A stretch of DNA of 64,000 bases, taken from assembly GCF_988243305.1 (NCBI RefSeq), contig NZ_OZ547136.1. The stretch is one strand, 5' to 3'. Position numbers and translations under genes: made by a program. Below, one piece after another: positions 2,832 to 57,955 of this stretch (positions are counted from its first letter, which is position 1; every line of letters starts with the position of its first letter). The notes beneath the pieces were generated by a model. It was given only the letters and a program-made list of their open reading frames with translations, was not told the DNA's origin and did no database searches.

Positions 2832-4643
2832 TTAAAAAGTGATACAGGTTGCGCCCTGTTCGGCACCGGACAGTTTTTCACGCAAGGCGCTGAATAATTC
2901 ACGTCCTGTTCCCACGCGTGACGCGCTCAGGTCAGGAATGTGCGGTTCGCGAGCAGCCAGTTCCGCTTCGTCTACCAGCAGCGTCAGTTCGCCTGTCTGT
3001 CCATTCACACGAATGATGTCCCCGTCGCGCACTTTTGCCAGCAGCCCGCCATCGTAGGCTTCTGGTGTTACGTGGATAGCTGACGGCACTTTACCTGAAG
3101 CGCCGGAGAGTCGTCCATCGGTAACTAACGCAATTTTGAAACACCGGTCCAATAATACACCAAGTGGCGGCATGAGTTTATGTAATTCTGGCATTCCGTT
3201 CGCTTTTGGCCCCTGATGACGGACAACAATGACACAATCGCGGTCCAGCAAACCCGCTTCAAAGGCCGGCATAACGTCATGCTGGCTTTCAAAAACAACC
3301 GCAGGCGCTTCAATCACCTGGTTCTCTACCGGCACGGCAGAGGTTTTCATCACCGCTCGGCCCAGGTTACCGCTTAACACTTTTGTCCCACCATGATGAG
3401 AGAAAGGTTGTTCGAAGGAAGCGATCACATTGTTGTCGAGTGATTTTTCTGCCCCTTCCCGCCAGTCCAGTTCACCATTATTCAGCCATGGTTCAAGGGT
3501 ATAACGAGACAGACCAAAGCCTGCCACCGTATTGACATCTTCATGCAGCAGGCCTGCTTTGAGCAGTTCACGCACCAGAACCGGTACGCCACCTGCCGCC
3601 TGGAAGTGGTTAATATCGGCCGGACCGTTCGGGTAGAGACGTGCCATCAGCGGTACAACATCAGAAAGGTCAGAAAAGTCATCCCAGTTAATCTGAATAC
3701 CGGCCGCGCGTGCCATCGCCACCAGGTGCATGGTGTGGTTAGTGGAACCACCGGTCGCCAGCAGTGCAACGATACCGTTCACCACCACTTTCTCATCGAT
3801 CATCTTACCGATCGGCATCCATTCATTACCATTACCGGTCATGCGTGTAACCTGGCGCGCAGCGGCTGCGGTCAAAGCATCGCGCAGCGGAGAATCCGGA
3901 TGAACAAAAGAAGAGCCTGGCAACTGCATCCCCATAAACTCCACCACCATCTGGTTGGTGTTGGCAGTACCGTAGAAAGTACATGTTCCCGGCGCATGAT
4001 AAGACGCGGCTTCTGACTCCAGTAATGCCATGCGGTCCACTTTACCTTCGGCATAAAGCTGGCGAATACGCACTTTTTCTTTATTTGGCAAACCGCTTGC
4101 CATCGGTCCAGACGGCACAAACACCGCAGGCAAATGCCCAAACGACAGGGCTGCCATCGTCAGACCCGGGACAATCTTGTCGCACACACCGAGGAACAGA
4201 GCACCATCAAACATGTTATGGGACAGCCCCACCGCCGCAGACATCGCAATCACTTCGCGGCTTAACAGCGACAATTCCATTCCATCCTGCCCCTGGGTGA
4301 CACCATCACACATCGCCGGAACACCGCCTGCAACCTGACCAACCGCATTTGCTTCATGCAGGGCTTTACGAATGATTTCTGGATAGTGTTCATAAGGCTG
4401 GTGAGCGGAGAGCATGTCGTTATAGGAGGTGATGATGGCGATATTGTTACGCAACATGCTTTTCAATGAGGCTTTGTCTTCTGGCTGGCAGGCAGCGAAA
4501 CCGTGTGCCAGGTTACCGCATGCCAACTGCGAACGATGAACGGTCGAAGTTTTCGCTTGTTCTATCCGGGCGAGATAAGCAGAGCGAGTCTCGCGCGAAC
4601 GTTCAATGATTCGATTTGTTACGCGTAACAATTGTGGGTTCAT
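2832..4643 (-). CDS. edd: Phosphogluconate dehydratase
   Basis: 603-aa ILVD/EDD-family ORF upstream of eda. Confidence 0.95.
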
Positions 4644-50672: not shown

Positions 50673-51479
50673 TTATATACGCCCTTTCAGATAAGTCATC
50701 CCCGGCTGCATCCAGTCAACAGGTGCTTTCTTAAAGGGCGTATTATCAAAATCACGCAGAAGAGCCTCCAGCACAACTGCATCATTGTCAGCACCACTGG
50801 CCATCATTTCAATCTCAGCTGCTACCTGCAGATATCCCATGCAACGACCAATGCGCTTCATCAGCCCCTGCTTTTTATTGTTCTTCAGGTAATCAATGGC
50901 AAATTCAATGAGCGCCTCACTATGCTGGTGCGATGGCGGTGTTAATTTCCCATTTTCTGAGATGGTTATTTTCCCGCCATCTCCGTATACAACAAAGGAT
51001 GGCCGGTTACACTCCCATTCCTGATCTTTATCAGGTGCAGACGCAATAAAATAACGTTTATTTCCTTCCTCTCCGGCACTTTTAACCGTAATGGAGTACT
51101 CAGACTGCAGACAAGACGCCTCTTTTTCTGACCGCAGTGTTGACGGCGGCATCTTCAGAGAACCAGTAATTCTTCCCGGTAGCTTTCCTTTGTAGGTTAT
51201 CAACACATCCTGCGCCTCTAAAATTATGGGGCGCTTTTCCGGCGACAGCTCATCCCCTTCACATAACCCGGCAGCAACATCCAGGAAGACCTGTCTGATG
51301 CTCCTTCTGGCTGCTGCCTCATAAAACTCCAGCGCGGCACCTTCAACACGGTCCAGCGAGATGTCCAGGTCAAAAATTTCACCGTCAAAGCGTTTTTTGT
51401 CCCGTAACGCTAAAGTTACCGTAACTTTATTCTCAAAATTGCGGATCCCTTTCACAATCAGTTCATAGTTTTGAGTCAT
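50673..51479 (-). CDS. Hypothetical protein (268 aa) inserted between holin and endolysin
   Basis: Start is 4 nt after the S stop (GAGTAATTCAATG) with GGGGAGAG Shine-Dalgarno inside the end of S; soluble; no family recognised. Confidence 0.6.
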   Translation of the reverse strand: MTQNYELIVKGIRNFENKVTVTLALRDKKRFDGEIFDLDISLDRVEGAALEFYEAAARRSIRQVFLDVAAGLCEGDELSPEKRPIILEAQDVLITYKGKLPGRITGSLKMPPSTLRSEKEASCLQSEYSITVKSAGEEGNKRYFIASAPDKDQEWECNRPSFVVYGDGGKITISENGKLTPPSHQHSEALIEFAIDYLKNNKKQGLMKRIGRCMGYLQVAAEIEMMASGADNDAVVLEALLRDFDNTPFKKAPVDWMQPGMTYLKGRI

Positions 51480-51483
51480 TGAA

Positions 51484-51699
51484 TTACTCTCCCCGTGCAG
51501 CCTTACGACGGTCCTCTCTGATTTTGAAATACAGGTTAGTCAGATATGTCAGCAGCCCAAACAGCAGACTCCCCAGCACGCCTATTGCCGCCCACTGAGA
51601 CGGGGAAACCCTGTCCAGCAACTGCAGGAACCAGTAGCCCGTTCCCACCGCTGACGTGGTGTATGACACACCTGTTGTGATTTTTTCCATCTGGTACAT
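51484..51699 (-). CDS. S: Holin, phage 21 S-type (pinholin-like), with dual-start motif
   Basis: ORF 51484..51777 trimmed to [10 protein letters not shown]...; two TM segments; C-terminus [19 protein letters not shown]. Confidence 0.85.
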
Positions 51700-51849
51700 A
51701 CCCCGTCTCCCGTTATCCGGAAGCTGACAACAATAAAAAAAGCCACCAGTTAAGTACTGATGGCTCTGATAACTCATGCAGGCATCTCAGACGACCCACT
51801 GACACTACCGGTGAGTTTAACGATACCTTCCATTTGACTGGCTCACTTT

Positions 51850-53703
51850 TTATGATGATGCCGGTGCATTTATCTCCAGCACCAGACTTTCTATCTCAAC
51901 GCCATACGCTGCATTTTTGGTAATATCCGTCAGCGTCAGCGCATTCAGCCCCAGTGTCAGACTGTCTTTTATGACCTGGAATGCCGGGCCAGCCACTCCA
52001 TTCAGTTTCGGAGTAACCGTGGCACTGCCGGCGGTGAACACCAGTTCCAGCGTCTGCCAGTCATTACTGTAATTCCCGAACTCGCCCAACTTTGTGTTTC
52101 CTGCTTTCTTGTGATGCATCAGATTCAGTTTGCCGTCTGTGGTCTGGGTGAAGAACGACATCAGGAACGGGTTACCAGTCCCGGCCATCGCCACGACGTC
52201 AGGTAACGCTACATCGGTATACAGATAAATTCCCAGGCCGAACTGGTTGTTGGTCAGTGCGCCTGACAGTCGAAACTTACAGCTCAGTCTGCCACCCCGT
52301 GTCAGCAGGGAGACTGCGTCATCCACCGGATGCATCAGGGACCAGGTTTTATTGCTCTGCTTGGCGATCTTAAATACACCACCCGACAACTGAATTCCGC
52401 CGTCCTTAATGGTCCAGCCCTGCGCAGCAGCCTCTCCGGCTGTCGGCAACAGGGAGATTGTGCGTACGGATGCATCTTCAGACGGCCCCGATGGCGTGTT
52501 GCCGCCGGGCGAGGGTTTGATTTCCGGTGCCTTACCACTGATGAAAGCTGAGGTGCGCCCGGCTGCGTTCAGAATAGCGGTTGCCATACGATCCGGAATA
52601 ATGCTCCTGCGCGCCCATGAACTGAAATGTGTCGGGCGGTTTGATGATACCTGGTTTCCATTCGTTCTCGATGCCGCACCGTAATATCCTGATGCCGGAA
52701 TATCCGGATCTTCTGCCGGTGCGTTAGTGGCGGTATTGACGCCGTTACCGTCTGTCATGAAGGGCACAAAATAAACGCCCTCACTCTCCCTGTTTTTATA
52801 CCCGCCGTACACGGTGTCGTACTGGGTAGCGTATGTATTTTTCCAGTAATACGTCGTGTCACCACAAATCCACGGCACATTTACAGCACTACCACCATGA
52901 CACTGCGCGTTAAACACAGTGAGGTCAGCACGAAACTGCTTCAGCATGGCTGTAAACAGCGCAGGTTGCTGTGCGTAGGTGGCGGCGTTCATGTCAAACT
53001 CTCCCTGCATCCAGCACACCGCCAGCAACACATTTTTCGGGTTCTTCTGTAATGCAGCTTTAGTGCGCGCAATCAGGTCCTGATATAACGGTTTACCCAC
53101 ACCCCAGCGTGCCGAATCCTGGCTGGCCCCCGCGTCCGCACTGAATGTCCCCTCCGCGCCCTTGGTGAATGCCGAACCACCACGACAGCATGGTACCAGC
53201 AGGATCCCCGCGTTATTCGGGATATACGGGAGCAGTTTTTTGGCAATATGTAAGCCCTGGCCGACACAGCCGTACTGCCCTTTGCTCAGGTCTGCCTTCG
53301 GATGATTCAGCGTACTCATATCCTGCACATCATGCAGACAGTGGTCAGCCGGGATGATGTCGTTATACGTACAACTCTCTCCACCCGGAGTTACCGTGCT
53401 GCGGCGCGCCAGCTGTTTAATGCGCGGATCCGGAGCATCGTAAGAATCCGGTAACGGAAGCCCTTCACCGTAGGCCATGCCGTTGGACTGTCCGGCAAGC
53501 ACAACCACGTAGAACCAGTCCGGCTCAGATGAAGGGCCGACCTGTGGATCTCCTTCAATAGCCACCGCCTGCATCAGTGTGTACGGCGTAATGGCAACCG
53601 GTCCGCCATATGGCTGCCAGCCCTCTTTCAGTTTGTGTGTCAGCTTTTCCGCAAGGTCTGACGGCGACGCCGCCCTGACAACATCATAGTGTTTAAATGC
53701 CAT
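51850..53703 (-). CDS. Prophage sialate O-acetylesterase (NanS-p / YjhS-like)
   Basis: 617-aa ORF in the position this gene holds in Stx-type phages, between the tRNA cluster and S. Confidence 0.8.
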   Translation of the reverse strand: MAFKHYDVVRAASPSDLAEKLTHKLKEGWQPYGGPVAITPYTLMQAVAIEGDPQVGPSSEPDWFYVVVLAGQSNGMAYGEGLPLPDSYDAPDPRIKQLARRSTVTPGGESCTYNDIIPADHCLHDVQDMSTLNHPKADLSKGQYGCVGQGLHIAKKLLPYIPNNAGILLVPCCRGGSAFTKGAEGTFSADAGASQDSARWGVGKPLYQDLIARTKAALQKNPKNVLLAVCWMQGEFDMNAATYAQQPALFTAMLKQFRADLTVFNAQCHGGSAVNVPWICGDTTYYWKNTYATQYDTVYGGYKNRESEGVYFVPFMTDGNGVNTATNAPAEDPDIPASGYYGAASRTNGNQVSSNRPTHFSSWARRSIIPDRMATAILNAAGRTSAFISGKAPEIKPSPGGNTPSGPSEDASVRTISLLPTAGEAAAQGWTIKDGGIQLSGGVFKIAKQSNKTWSLMHPVDDAVSLLTRGGRLSCKFRLSGALTNNQFGLGIYLYTDVALPDVVAMAGTGNPFLMSFFTQTTDGKLNLMHHKKAGNTKLGEFGNYSNDWQTLELVFTAGSATVTPKLNGVAGPAFQVIKDSLTLGLNALTLTDITKNAAYGVEIESLVLEINAPASS

Positions 53704-54192
53704 GAATCCTCCCGGCCGGGATAATATTGTGAGTAAAATGAGGAGCGGGCTGAAGTCCGGAAGTTACAGGACAATGGCAGAAGAGAGACAATAGCCCGCA
53801 ATACGAAAAAGGCCGCGCTATTGCGCAGAGTGATTACTGTCAGATATTATTCGCCAGCTGAAATATTACTTCACGTTTTGTTGTTTATTCCTTGCCGCCC
53901 GCGTCTCCCTGCGCGGGATTTTTTTGTCCATAAGAAAGCCCCTCCGGAGAGGGGCTGGAGAGTGGCGCTATGTGCCATTGCATGGTGCCGGGTGCCTCCC
54001 GGTGAATTCAGTACCAGCACCTGAATCCGCGATTATCCCATATACCTACTCGCTGATTGCCCCTCCGCACAGGGGGATTCACCATGCCAGTTTCTTTTAA
54101 CAAACTCCCCGCAAAACAGACAACTGTCAACCGTCTGAATTGTGAGACATTTAAAAAAAAGGCCCGCAAAAGCGAGCCAGGGAAAATAAGTG

Positions 54193-54269
54193 TGGCGCGT
54201 TGTACTGGATTCGAACCAGTGACCGATTGCTTAGAAGGCAATTGCTCTGTCCGGCTGAGCTAACAACGC
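54193..54269 (-). tRNA. argO: tRNA-Arg (anticodon UCU), argO-like
   Basis: Hand-folded cloverleaf; anticodon loop CTTCTAA; T-arm GGTTCGAATCC; 3' CCA encoded. Confidence 0.8.
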
Positions 54270-54282
54270 AGGGTACAGATAA

Positions 54283-54359
54283 TGGACCGCCATCGAGGAC
54301 TCGAACCCCGCGCAACCAGCTTCGAAGGCTGGCGCTCTATCCTGATGAGCTAATGGCGG
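54283..54359 (-). tRNA. argN: tRNA-Arg (anticodon UCG), argN-like
   Basis: Hand-folded; anticodon loop CTTCGAA; T-arm GGTTCGAGTCC; 3' CCA encoded. Confidence 0.75.
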
Positions 54360-54366
54360 TATGTGA

Positions 54367-54438
54367 TGGTGGCCCTTGCTGGATTTGAACCAGCGACCTG
54401 GCGATTATGAGTCGCTCTCACCACTGAGCTAAAGGGCC
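54367..54438 (-). tRNA. ileZ: tRNA with CAU anticodon (Ile2/Met type), ileZ-like
   Basis: Hand-folded; anticodon loop CTCATAA; T-arm GGTTCAAATCC; short D-loop; 3' CCA encoded. Confidence 0.7.
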
Positions 54439-54600
54439 GGGAGCCGCATAATAACGACGCGTAATTAATTCTTCAATATCATCCGTTCTGGCTGACTAAA
54501 TCCTGTACTTCCCGAACCGTCTGCTCAAAACATTCAGTCTCCAGCTCAACGCCAATTGCACGACGCCCGAGCGCCAGTGCTGCTTTGACGCTACGGACAT

Positions 54601-54629
54601 AAAAAAGCCAGCCACTGGGGGAGGCTGGC
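54601..54629 (-). terminator. Intrinsic terminator upstream of the tRNA cluster
   Basis: gccagcc...ggctggc hairpin followed on the minus strand by TTTTTT. Confidence 0.5.
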
Positions 54630-55263
54630 GAAACTCGTAGAGCAAAAGTGTTGTTACACTAACTTCGTCACAGGGTTATCCTGCAATACTCAAAATACAC
54701 AATATTTACAAAACTAATAGTATACAAGGCGATCTTTAAGATTTTGTTATAAATTATTGCCTTTCTCCTCTTTCCATGAGCTTTCTGGGTAGCCACAGAA
54801 TTCCGGGTACAGAAAAACCCGCTCAGCGGCGGGTTTAAGCTGTGTGACGAAGTAACCACTCTTAACAGCATAACCAATTTTTTACGTACGTAAACCACTA
54901 AATGATATTTGCGAGAATGCTACCGAGTATTGAAAACACCACTACAAATACATAAGCAAATCTCAACAAATAACCAACAAATAATTTCCAGTGTTATTTT
55001 TAGCCGGTTTAAATTGAACCTTCAAATTATAGAGCACTTATAAATAACAGCCGTTAATATAAATTGGCTAATAGATTTATTTTTATTCAGCCAAGAGCCA
55101 TGAATAGGATTCGATAGAAAAAAGTTCAGATAAAAATAGAGATCTACTTCACAAATCAAACGAGAAACCAAAACTAACATCTTGAAATAATCACATTGAT
55201 TAGATGAATATTTATCGCGCAGTGACATCATTTTTTAATAATAGTTCAAAAAAAGGGCTCACG

Positions 55264-56346
55264 ATGAAAAAATTAACAGTGGCAATTTCTGCTGTAGCTG
55301 CATCAGTACTGATGGCGATGTCTGCTCAGGCAGCTGAAATTTATAATAAAGACAGTAACAAGCTGGATCTGTACGGGAAAGTTAATGCTAAGCACTATTT
55401 CTCCTCTAATGATGCAGATGATGGTGATACTACTTATGCCCGTCTTGGCTTCAAAGGTGAAACCCAAATCAACGATCAACTGACTGGTTTCGGTCAGTGG
55501 GAATATGAATTCAAAGGCAACCGCGCTGAATCTCAAGGTTCCTCCAAAGATAAAACCCGTCTTGCCTTCGCTGGCCTGAAATTCGGTGACTACGGCTCAA
55601 TCGATTACGGCCGTAACTACGGTGTAGCATACGACATCGGTGCGTGGACTGACGTTCTGCCAGAATTCGGTGGCGATACCTGGACCCAAACAGATGTGTT
55701 CATGACTGGTCGCACCACTGGTGTTGCAACTTATCGTAACAACGACTTCTTTGGTCTGGTTGATGGTCTGAACTTTGCTGCTCAGTATCAGGGTAAAAAT
55801 GACCGCACTGACGTAACTGAAGCTAATGGTGATGGTTTCGGTTTCTCCACTACTTATGAGTATGAAGGATTCGGTGTAGGTGCAACCTATGCTAAATCTG
55901 ACCGCACTAATAATCAGGTTATCTACGGTAACAACAGCCTGAATGCATCTGGTCAAAATGCTGAAGTATGGGCAGCTGGTCTGAAATATGATGCGAACAA
56001 CATCTATCTGGCTACCACCTATTCTGAAACCCAGAACATGACTGTTTTTGGTAATAACCATATTGCCAACAAAGCACAAAACTTCGAAGTAGTTGCACAA
56101 TATCAGTTCGACTTCGGTCTGCGTCCGTCCGTTGCTTACCTGCAATCTAAAGGAAAAGACTTGGGTGCGTGGGGTGATCAGGACCTGGTTGAATATATTG
56201 ATGTAGGTGCAACCTATTACTTCAACAAAAATATGTCCACTTTTGTTGATTACAAAATCAACCTGATTGATAAGAGCGATTTCACGAAAGCATCTGGCGT
56301 TGCTACCGATGATATCGTTGCTGTAGGTATGGTTTACCAGTTCTAA
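55264..56346 (+). CDS. Prophage-encoded OmpC/OmpF-family porin (NmpC/Lc-like)
   Basis: ORF 55204..56346 trimmed to the [23 protein letters not shown] signal peptide; ends in ...VGMVYQF; opposite strand to the late operon. Confidence 0.9.
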
Positions 56347-56482
56347 TTTGATTACTAAAAGATATGTTGCGGGAGGCTTTGCCTCCCCAACATATAAGTG
56401 GCTCCCTCAAGCCACTTCCTTTAGGAGCACAACCTTGCTTCTAACTATATAAACCTTCTGTTATATATTACCCTTTATTTTT

Positions 56483-56510
56483 GGGGGCGTTGCAACGCCC
56501 CATTTTTAAT
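56483..56510 (+). terminator. Intrinsic terminator after the porin gene
   Basis: gggggcgttgcaacgcccc followed by atttttaataatttt. Confidence 0.55.
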
Positions 56511-56534
56511 AATTTTTAGTAAACAATTGGCATA

Positions 56535-56918
56535 TTAATTAGAGTTATTAACAACGATATCCATCTCTAACCGGATATCTAATGCCATTAACATCCCTTC
56601 AATTATGCCCTCAGCCTTCTGTAACCTTTTCCCGATATAACCATCAGAGCAGCAATGCTTACCTGCCAGTGACATGAATGTCATACCGACTACATAATAA
56701 TCTACTAATAAATCGTGCAAATCGCTGTTGTTCTTTTTCAGACGGGCCATGCACCCGCAAATAATCATCGCGTCATCGTCACAACATTGCGGGCGAGATT
56801 TTACTTTTGAAGTAATTAATCCCTTAAAACCGGCGGCAATGGACGACCAGGTCACATCTTCATGATTATTAGCCGCCCACGCTCCCCAGCGTTCGAGAAC
56901 CATCTGAATATCACGCAT
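56535..56918 (-). CDS. Q: Late gene antiterminator Q (QuuD-like)
   Basis: ORF 56535..56933 trimmed to [22 protein letters not shown]...; Cys-rich zinc-binding region. Confidence 0.85.
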
Positions 56919-56935
56919 CAACTTTCTCCACAAAA

Positions 56936-57955
56936 TCAGGACAGCACACCAATCGCCAGCGCGCGATCGATAAAACGAAATATCAGCTCCAGTTGGGAAC
57001 CATACTTCTCTTCAAATGCCACGGTATCCGCATGTAGTTCGTCATGGTGTTTTCTGCACAAAGGCAACACAAAAAGGTCATGCGCTTTTGTACCCATTCC
57101 ACCCTGACCATGACCAATCAGGTGATGAGGATCGTCGGCTGGCTTACCACAACATGCACACGGCTGCGTCTTAACCCAGCGCGTGTACTTTTCATTAACC
57201 CAGCGACGACGTTTTGGGCGTAACATAAAAGACTCCGGCGACTCCGGATCCACTTTCAGCGCCAGCACCTTTTTCGCTTTATCCTGGATGATGCTGGTGG
57301 CAGGAACCGAAGGCACAAGGTCACTTTCCCGGGTGACAGACGGCACAACAGGCTTCGGTAATCTCAGTGCCTTACGGGCTGCACTTTCCGGTAAGGCATC
57401 CGCCAGGTCATTACGAATCAGCCACCAGCACAGTTCCGGCATTGTCACAACGTGACTGTCATCAAAACCGAGATCCCGACGCACAACAGACAACACCCAG
57501 CGGGCACAGTTATCCGTTGCCATTGATTCCAGCCGTTCCGTGAACTGATCGCGCAGCTGGTTATCGCAGTGCCAGCACAGACGGATTGCACCCGGAGCGT
57601 GTCGCATTGTGGTCATGTTCTCGCTGTGCCAGTCGGAATGAGGCCACTGGCAGCCTTTTTCACGAAGTAACCAGCTTTCAAGACATTCCACGCCACCAGC
57701 ACGACGGATCACTGCCTCATTGCGGAACACGGCCCGAACGGCAGGATCATCCGCCAGCGGTTGTGATGCCGCCGGAACGGCACCACTGGCGAAAGATGAA
57801 TAACGTTCCGGCTCAGGCTCCAGCAGGACACGCCCCTGCATAAACAGGGGCATCAGCTCTGAACCGGGCCTGAACAATACAATCCCCATACGCGGGGCAA
57901 TTTCAGGGGTCAGCAGTGCTCTCACGGTCACCTCAGCAAACGATATTGAATGCAT
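56936..57955 (-). CDS. DUF968-like protein with C-terminal HNH-like Cys/His motif
   Basis: 339-aa ORF immediately upstream of Q; CACCGK...HHLIGHG...CRKHHDELH. Confidence 0.6.

Follow-up and report, generated by a model that had tools for sequence, protein, structure and literature searches.

On the minus strand of the 64,000-nucleotide stretch of DNA analysed here (the window), positions 54479..54589 hold what is, with a probability of about 90%, the non-functional 3' remnant of a phage gene for a beta-class N6-adenine methyltransferase of the M.EcoGII family, left by an old replacement, inherited ever since and giving rise to no protein. About 10% of the gene, the portion after motif I, is retained, and it now forms a 111-nt spacer between the terminator tR' and a promoter-like site ahead of a tRNA cluster (Table 1). 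The remnant as such is already known. In E. coli B1-56, PGAP marks exactly the corresponding bases as a pseudogene ('site-specific DNA-methyltransferase; incomplete; missing N-terminus'), and a survey by the Kruger group (2023, PMC10462455) reports both a short and a long form, namely 'putative methylases' of 50 and 352 aa located downstream of Q in all Stx2a phages. The B1-56 locus is a near twin of the one described here, with 99.9% identity over a 1,151-nt probe (54150..55300) and 98% over 51445..57935; beyond ~57.9 kb the two differ. What the present analysis adds are the exact junction, its direct contact with the terminator of the small RNA StxS, the parentage in the M.EcoGII family and the existence of several independent classes of truncation.

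The identity of the remnant is established by its close homologues. Its peptide matches residues 316-352 of the intact 352-aa methyltransferase gp29 of Stx2a_WGPS2 (WGPS2) at 33 of 37 positions (89%; BLASTP, E 6e-20), in agreement with the earlier note on this DNA, which had taken the frame ahead of the tRNA cluster for a possible leftover of the C-terminus of a DNA methyltransferase of the N6/N4 type. The tblastn search suggested there was run on the whole window with gp29 as the query, and its sole significant match fell at 54592..54482 (E 1.6e-14). Conversely, the 37-aa peptide found 290 records by tblastn in 2.3 Gb of phage records (best E 1e-14), and some of these matches lie under full-length annotated DNA methylases. 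The suggested comparison with related prophages that carry an intact methylase was equally informative: in WGPS2 a 1,059-nt gene occupies the same spot and ends 40 nt before ileZ-argN-argO, the very distance that separates the stop codon of the remnant from the first of the three tRNA genes (54438..54193, minus strand) in the window. Gene order and stop-to-tRNA distance are therefore equal in the intact and the truncated loci.

The intact parent is an unambiguous member of its family. WGPS2 gp29 matches the Pfam profile PF01555 (N6_N4_Mtase) over residues 29-340 with 150.4 bits (E 9e-44), and its closest solved relatives are the beta-class enzymes M.RsrI, CcrM, M.MboIIA and DpnA. It is 93.4% identical to M.EcoGII over 348 aligned positions, a figure that is approximate because the M.EcoGII sequence, taken from the supplement of the SUPREM paper (PMC11551740), is a machine-read text with visible errors. 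The remnant itself shares 28 of 34 residues with the C-terminus of M.EcoGII. The latter, encoded by a prophage of E. coli O104:H4 C227-11, methylates adenine at N6 without sequence specificity and is described as silent in the lysogen and harmful under constitutive expression; DPPY lies towards its N-terminus, FxGxG towards its C-terminus and the recognition domain between them (PMC5778455, Murray et al. 2018). Judged by homology, the remnant is a descendant of this beta-class N6/N4 methyltransferase family (PF01555, M.EcoGII family).

It is not a functional member of that family: the DPPY and FxGxG motifs are missing, the Pfam threshold is not reached and there is no start codon. In intact gp29, DPPY occupies residues 35-38 and FFMGSGST residues 308-315, with T at 316. 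Since tblastn of the 64-kb window returned only residues 316-352, DPPY (motif IV) was not found in it; the SAM-binding motif I, FxGxG, is likewise missing from the window, where homology begins at residue 316/317 and the sequence upstream aligns no better than shuffled versions of itself. Only the part of the gene beyond FxGxG is present, and therefore no enzyme is possible. The earlier note had seen in the peptide a resemblance to the conserved C-terminal motif of such enzymes; it correctly recognised the LGRRxIGxE stretch, but the retained piece follows the FxGxG motif I and excludes that motif. Taken by itself, the fragment scores 11.9 bits against PF01555 (E 0.21), short of the cutoff of 26.7 bits, so the assignment draws on close homologues and not on the family profile. 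A displaced remainder of the gene elsewhere in the window, as after inversion or transposition, was considered and rejected, as the same tblastn search gave nothing beyond residues 316-352. A weak match of the methylase query at 14.7 kb (E 0.18) lies in an open reading frame that we take to be the chromosomal ruvB, and the Dam-like 'phage N-6-adenine-methyltransferase' of E. coli B1-56 has no match in the window.

Table 1. Features of the remnant and its surroundings, in window coordinates
Feature	Position	Strand	Details
Antiterminator Q, quuD type	56535..56918	minus	78% identical to Q of 933W
OmpC/NmpC-like porin gene	55264..56346	plus	PGAP 'porin OmpC' in the near-identical B1-56 locus
pR'-like late promoter	54867..54894	minus	TTTACG (54894..54889), 16-nt spacer, TATGCT (54872..54867); putative, by homology
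StxS_L-like late-promoter leader RNA, ~260 nt	54601..54861	minus	putative start near 54861
Leader hairpin 1	~54836..54813	minus	
RNase E motif	54689..54685	minus	GU|AUU
StxS_S-like 3' part	54687..54601	minus	
Intrinsic terminator tR'	54601..54629	minus	GCCAGCC-TCCCCCAGT-GGCTGGC + T6; hairpin appears in fold
Junction filler ATGTCCGTAGC (11 nt)	54590..54600	minus	between terminator T-run and methylase sequence; part of the upstream StxS/tR' module
Methylase gene remnant (pseudogene fragment)	54479..54589	minus	last 36 codons + TGA = nt 949-1059 of the intact 1,059-nt gene
Sigma-70 promoter-like site	54448..54476	minus	TTGAAG, 17-nt spacer, TATTAT; consensus scan
tRNA cluster ileZ (CAT), argN (TCG), argO (TCT)	54193..54438	minus	94.4% identical to Sakai Sp5 cluster
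Terminator-like hairpin	54178..54161	minus	between tRNA cluster and STnc100 match
STnc100 sRNA match	54116..53926	minus	Rfam 139 bits, gathering score 47; between tRNA cluster and esterase gene
nanS-p-type esterase ORF	51850..53703	minus	

The sequence that precedes the remnant corresponds to a regulatory module mapped in Shiga toxin phages. In Sakai, transcription from the constitutive late promoter pR' yields the 258-nt StxS_L, whose 3' end was mapped to tR' by dRNA-seq and Term-seq, and RNase E cuts this RNA at GU|AUU at +173 to yield the regulatory small RNA StxS_S (PMC7547250, Sy et al.). Coordinates given there are shifted by 141 nt relative to NC_002695.2, and the unit was therefore placed by sequence and by the 258-nt distance. 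The Sp5 prophage of Sakai has TTTACG-16-TATCAT, and 258 nt separate the inferred pR' start from the T-run of a GCCAGCC-N9-GGCTGGC-T6 hairpin that abuts the remnant; as this equals the mapped distance from pR' to tR', the hairpin abutting the remnant is tR'. The first leader hairpin, labelled tR' in the old 933W record Y10775, differs from the mapped 3' end of StxS. The same record marks the site homologous to the pR' of the window as putative pR', with the 933W/Sp5 hexamers TTTACG and TATCAT 16 nt apart; a simple promoter consensus scan did not call the pR'-like site of the window. Compared with Sakai Sp5, the StxS_L span of the window is 83% identical and its StxS_S span 91%, and the whole interval 54448..54895 is ~85% identical to the Q-to-tRNA region of 933W-type Stx2 phages. 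On this comparison, the pR'-StxS-tR' unit of the window is homologous to the 933W-type late leader module, with its hexamers kept. A search of Rfam gave no family over the remnant, and the sub-threshold 'Qrr' and 'Trp_leader' hits in the StxS-like region are at chance level.

As an observation in its own right, a complete pR'/StxS/tR' homologue (54601-54894, minus strand) with its RNase E motif thus resides in a prophage that has no stx genes. Given the presence of the unit in such a prophage, control of host rpoS in the manner of StxS may extend beyond Stx phages.

How the methylase gene lost its 5' part can be read from an alignment of the two loci. Positions 54890..54813 of the window, from the core of pR' through the first leader hairpin, match WGPS2 1517-1593 with 88.8% identity, and positions 54589..54152, from methylase nt 949 through the tRNAs, match WGPS2 3004-3447 with 91.9% identity. 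Between these homologous stretches WGPS2 has 1,410 nt, made up of a 65-codon ORF, a hairpin with a T-run that by its sequence resembles a terminator, and the first 948 nt of the methylase gene, whereas the window has 223 unrelated nt that contain the StxS body and the tR' terminator. An exchange of 1,410 nt for 223 unrelated nt looks like a replacement, probably by illegitimate recombination, and not like a clean deletion, with the intact arrangement as the presumed starting state. The earlier note had envisaged a fragment left by a deletion; it is indeed a truncated leftover, but of an old inherited junction at which one segment probably took the place of another. In the intact locus, over WGPS2 1517-1920, the pR' leader and first hairpin, which 933W-type phages also have, are followed by the 65-codon ORF with its own terminator-like hairpin, and then by the methylase.

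The breakpoint itself can be placed precisely. A probe of 121 nt spanning the junction was searched in 5426 complete E. coli genomes, with a full hit defined as one covering at least 80% of the probe length. Partial matches were of two kinds: those stopping at probe position 74 (window 54592) represent Stx1-type prophages, which have the upstream sequence and no methylase remnant, and those starting at probe position 77 (window 54589) represent methylase genes that are intact. This confines the junction to 54592..54589; at protein level the alignment begins one codon before 54589, at 54592. Homology of the methylase gene reaching further upstream was examined as a candidate and rejected: MAFFT aligns the tR' hairpin with codons 300-315 at ~50% identity, with a shared TTTTT(T/C)AT, and global alignments of the sequence upstream of the junction scored z -2.2 to +2.0 against 1000 shuffles, with no homology detectable. 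The alignment suggests, at most, microhomology at the T-run.

Loss of the 5' part of this gene is not unique to the junction in the window. The same gene has been truncated from its 5' side at least three other times, in each case with the 3' end kept beside tRNA-Ile. The allele of PhiR49_2 keeps 279 nt with a break at about nt 763, which by comparison with WGPS2 is a deletion of ~1.2 kb that contains 31 nt of filler, and is recorded as a DNA adenine methylase CDS. That of E. coli OkiPb01688 keeps 396 nt with a break at about nt 665, and that of E. coli 23AR1183 keeps 288 nt with a break at about nt 763 behind genes for a Ser/Thr kinase and a PP2C phosphatase; PGAP calls both N-terminally incomplete pseudogenes. 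The 23AR1183 locus (347-2647) is peculiar in that the kinase/PP2C phosphatase pair sits between Q and the 288-nt remnant, and a different set of tRNAs (Ile, Thr, Gly) follows.

Such recurrence raises the question of whether the truncations are neutral. Repeated 5' truncation could mean that a toxic and sequence-non-specific methylase like M.EcoGII is recurrently selected against; alternatively, the terminal 111 nt could have a cis function, either activating the tRNA promoter from upstream or, as a structured leader, tuning read-through from tR' into the tRNAs and late genes. We consider either form of a non-neutral account improbable. Retention of the 3' end is what is expected from the arrangement of the locus, because the selected neighbours, the tRNAs, sit 3' of the gene. 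A more specific version, to which we give somewhat less credence still, holds that the remnant persists because it serves the tRNA promoter as an upstream activating region (-38 to -148), or the late read-through transcript as a processing element or structured leader. It would account for the position of the remnant, which adjoins the -35 hexamer of the promoter-like site, for the retention of the 3' end beside tRNA-Ile in four independent truncation classes, for an RNA fold that is moderately better than that of shuffled sequences (z = -2.5) and for the lack of frame-breaking mutations in the copies examined. Yet CFT073-type prophages keep the promoter and the tRNAs with no methylase sequence, their homology starting just past the stop codon, which makes the remnant dispensable for the tRNA module. 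Between the window and Sakai, moreover, the remnant is 88.3% identical, below the 94.4% of the functional tRNAs and above the 77.5% of the promoter spacer, and inspection by eye of one candidate 15-bp window revealed no convincing Fis-type motif.

The persistence of the old reading frame deserves separate comment. It is intact, with no indel or stop, in 8 of 8 copies (the window, B1-56, P13803, phi349, 933W, PA11, P32 and Sakai), which is mildly unexpected for old neutral DNA. The remnant alleles, of the types LAL..TEC, MSL..TER and MAL..SGR, mirror variants found among the intact genes and M.EcoGII, and the open frame is for this reason at least partly explained by recombination with intact alleles.

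Downstream of the remnant, the sigma-70 promoter-like site starts 3 nt after the stop codon of the remnant and ends 10 nt before tRNA-Ile2, and Sakai Sp5 keeps it as TTGCAG-17-TATTAT. Its position matches that of the tRNA transcription start determined by dRNA-seq in Sakai (PMC7547250, Sy et al.), and TTGAAG-17-TATTAT is likely the tRNA promoter. The CAT tRNA (54367-54438, minus strand) is called Met by ARAGORN, and tRNA-Ile (ileZ) by PGAP and in the Sakai record. The ileZ tRNA-Ile decodes AUA after lysidine modification. No stx operon follows the tRNAs: the interval of ~490 nt between them and the esterase gene holds the STnc100 match and no stx-sized ORF. In CFT073 (locus 1937-2790) the promoter and ileZ-argN-argO are preserved, homology resumes one base after the methylase stop, and IS200C lies just upstream. 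Many non-STEC E. coli prophages, of which CFT073 is an example, share that boundary and lack methylase sequence, which defines a second, very sharp module boundary. In all, ~7,500 sites in E. coli genomes match the tRNA-Ile module.

Could the frame nevertheless encode a small functional protein? The minus strand at 54592..54482 translates to SVKAALALGRRAIGVELETECFEQTVREVQDLVSQNG, followed by the stop TGA at 54481..54479. The full frame ending at 54479 reads, from stop to stop, CNNTFALRVSPASPSGWLFYVRSVKAALALGRRAIGVELETECFEQTVREVQDLVSQNG; it is open for 59 codons (54658..54482, minus strand) and is preceded by a TAG at 54661..54659. The short minus-strand frame of fewer than 60 codons ending near 54480, described from a translation by hand, is thus real, and its peptide is reproduced exactly. 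Methylase ancestry is confined to the last 36-37 codons; the other 22 are unrelated to it by the shuffle test and cross the tR' terminator hairpin. As the window has the homologues of pR', StxS and tR', these first 22 codons are the 3' part of the StxS-like RNA and its terminator, and non-coding. ORFs for a '50-aa putative DNA methylase' have been annotated in GenBank records of PA11, P32, phi349 and others, the literature lists '50-aa putative proteins' (PMC10462455), and none of the copies examined interrupts the frame, but a protein product is very improbable: ATG, GTG and TTG are absent from the 59-codon frame of the window (54658..54482), the TTG annotated as the start in 933W-type records sits inside the tR' hairpin, upstream of the T-run, and the product would have neither DPPY nor FxGxG, scores 11.9 against a required 26.7 bits and is called a pseudogene by PGAP. 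The lack of any such start codon is also why the list of open reading frames had no entry in this frame. Because the remnant abuts the StxS terminator, the '50-aa DNA methylase' ORF calls are artefacts that fuse a terminator to the end of a dead gene.

The distribution of the junction bears on its age. Full-length matches to the junction probe were found in 541 of the 5426 complete E. coli genomes, and 1916 of these genomes contain an intact methylase gene. Among 251 matching phage records, 37 have a near-full-length gene and ~210 span nt 949-1059; every partial match sampled from those listed covers exactly this stretch, and 933W, VT2-Sakai (Sp5), Stx2 II and O104:H4-type phages are among them. 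The alignment of the window with related phages is base-for-base equal at the junction, the filler ATGTCCGTAGC is 100% identical to that of Sakai Sp5, and the breakpoint agrees, with a difference of no more than 2 nt, with those of 933W, Sakai Sp5 and O104:H4-type Stx2a phages. An identical breakpoint in phages and in 541 genomes means that the junction is old and was inherited with its module, and was not made in the prophage of the window. The alternative that the prophage of the window suffered its own recent deletion, for instance through insertion of the porin cassette, is refuted by this shared junction. It could point to the porin gene between Q and pR' as a sign of a clearly rearranged area, but the identical junction is present in porin-free phages whose Q933 abuts pR' (933W, Sakai Sp5 and P13803) as well as in those 541 genomes, and the rearrangement on the porin side stops near 54895, which leaves 300 nt between it and the methylase junction. 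The porin gene stands between Q and the pR' region, which are ~1.6 kb apart, and the C-terminus of Q departs from that of Q933 where the porin cassette begins; Q presumably acts on the pR' region across this distance.

Taken together, the old-replacement reading suggests the following history. Where lambdoid prophages have the intact arrangement, pR' leads through a short leader and a small ORF to the gene for the 352-aa methyltransferase, and this gene precedes the tRNA promoter and ileZ-argN-argO. An ancestor that this prophage shares with 933W-type Stx2 phages probably underwent an illegitimate recombination that swapped everything from just after the first hairpin to methylase nt 948, the incoming piece being a 223-nt segment with the StxS small RNA body and tR'. 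The leftover 111 nt would thereby have been stranded between tR' and the tRNA promoter, and since then probably inherited and reshuffled by homologous recombination alongside the tRNA module. Through antitermination by Q at tR', the remnant is probably transcribed only as part of the late read-through RNA that continues into the tRNAs and late genes. Such passive transcription, and neutrality of the remnant, are the most likely state of affairs given the comparisons above.

The remnant itself is of little importance, being a pseudogene fragment that standard NCBI annotation flags and that the Stx-phage literature lists, and since it is shared by hundreds of E. coli prophages including 933W it is an ordinary one. 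A few modest points follow from it nonetheless. As a precise mosaic boundary, the fragment helps to follow the exchange of the Q/pR'/StxS and tRNA modules between lambdoid prophages. Furthermore, since its parent is a gene of the M.EcoGII family, 933W-type phages and the prophage of the window are without a late-expressed hypermethylation function, a gene for which is intact in some prophage of about a third of complete E. coli genomes.

Three known systems place the locus in context. The 933W, VT2-Sakai and O104:H4-type Stx2a phages share with the window the breakpoint (nt 949 of 1059), the tR' hairpin, the filler, the tRNA promoter and the tRNA genes; their remnant is left unannotated or labelled a '50-aa putative DNA methylase'. 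Unlike them, the prophage of the window has no stx, and its tRNAs are followed by an STnc100-like sRNA and nanS-p; its Q is of the quuD type with a porin gene between Q and pR', whereas in 933W, Sakai Sp5 and P13803 Q933 directly abuts pR'. A 50-aa ORF can be called in 933W-type records through a TTG that the window lacks, and the remnant allele of the window is nearer to that of PhiR49_2, with a lineage-specific Arg-to-Cys change (CGT to TGT). The longer truncated alleles of PhiR49_2, OkiPb01688 and 23AR1183 resemble the window in having the 3' end of the methylase directly upstream of tRNA-Ile, but their breakpoints and upstream partners differ, and PhiR49_2 has not undergone the StxS/tR' replacement. 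Finally, the likeness to M.EcoGII and M.EcoGI is that of kinship: the parent gene of the remnant is ~93% identical to M.EcoGII, and both are prophage genes of the PF01555 beta class. In contrast to M.EcoGII, the remnant in the window has shed DPPY, the target recognition domain, FxGxG and the start codon, and no enzyme is made from it.
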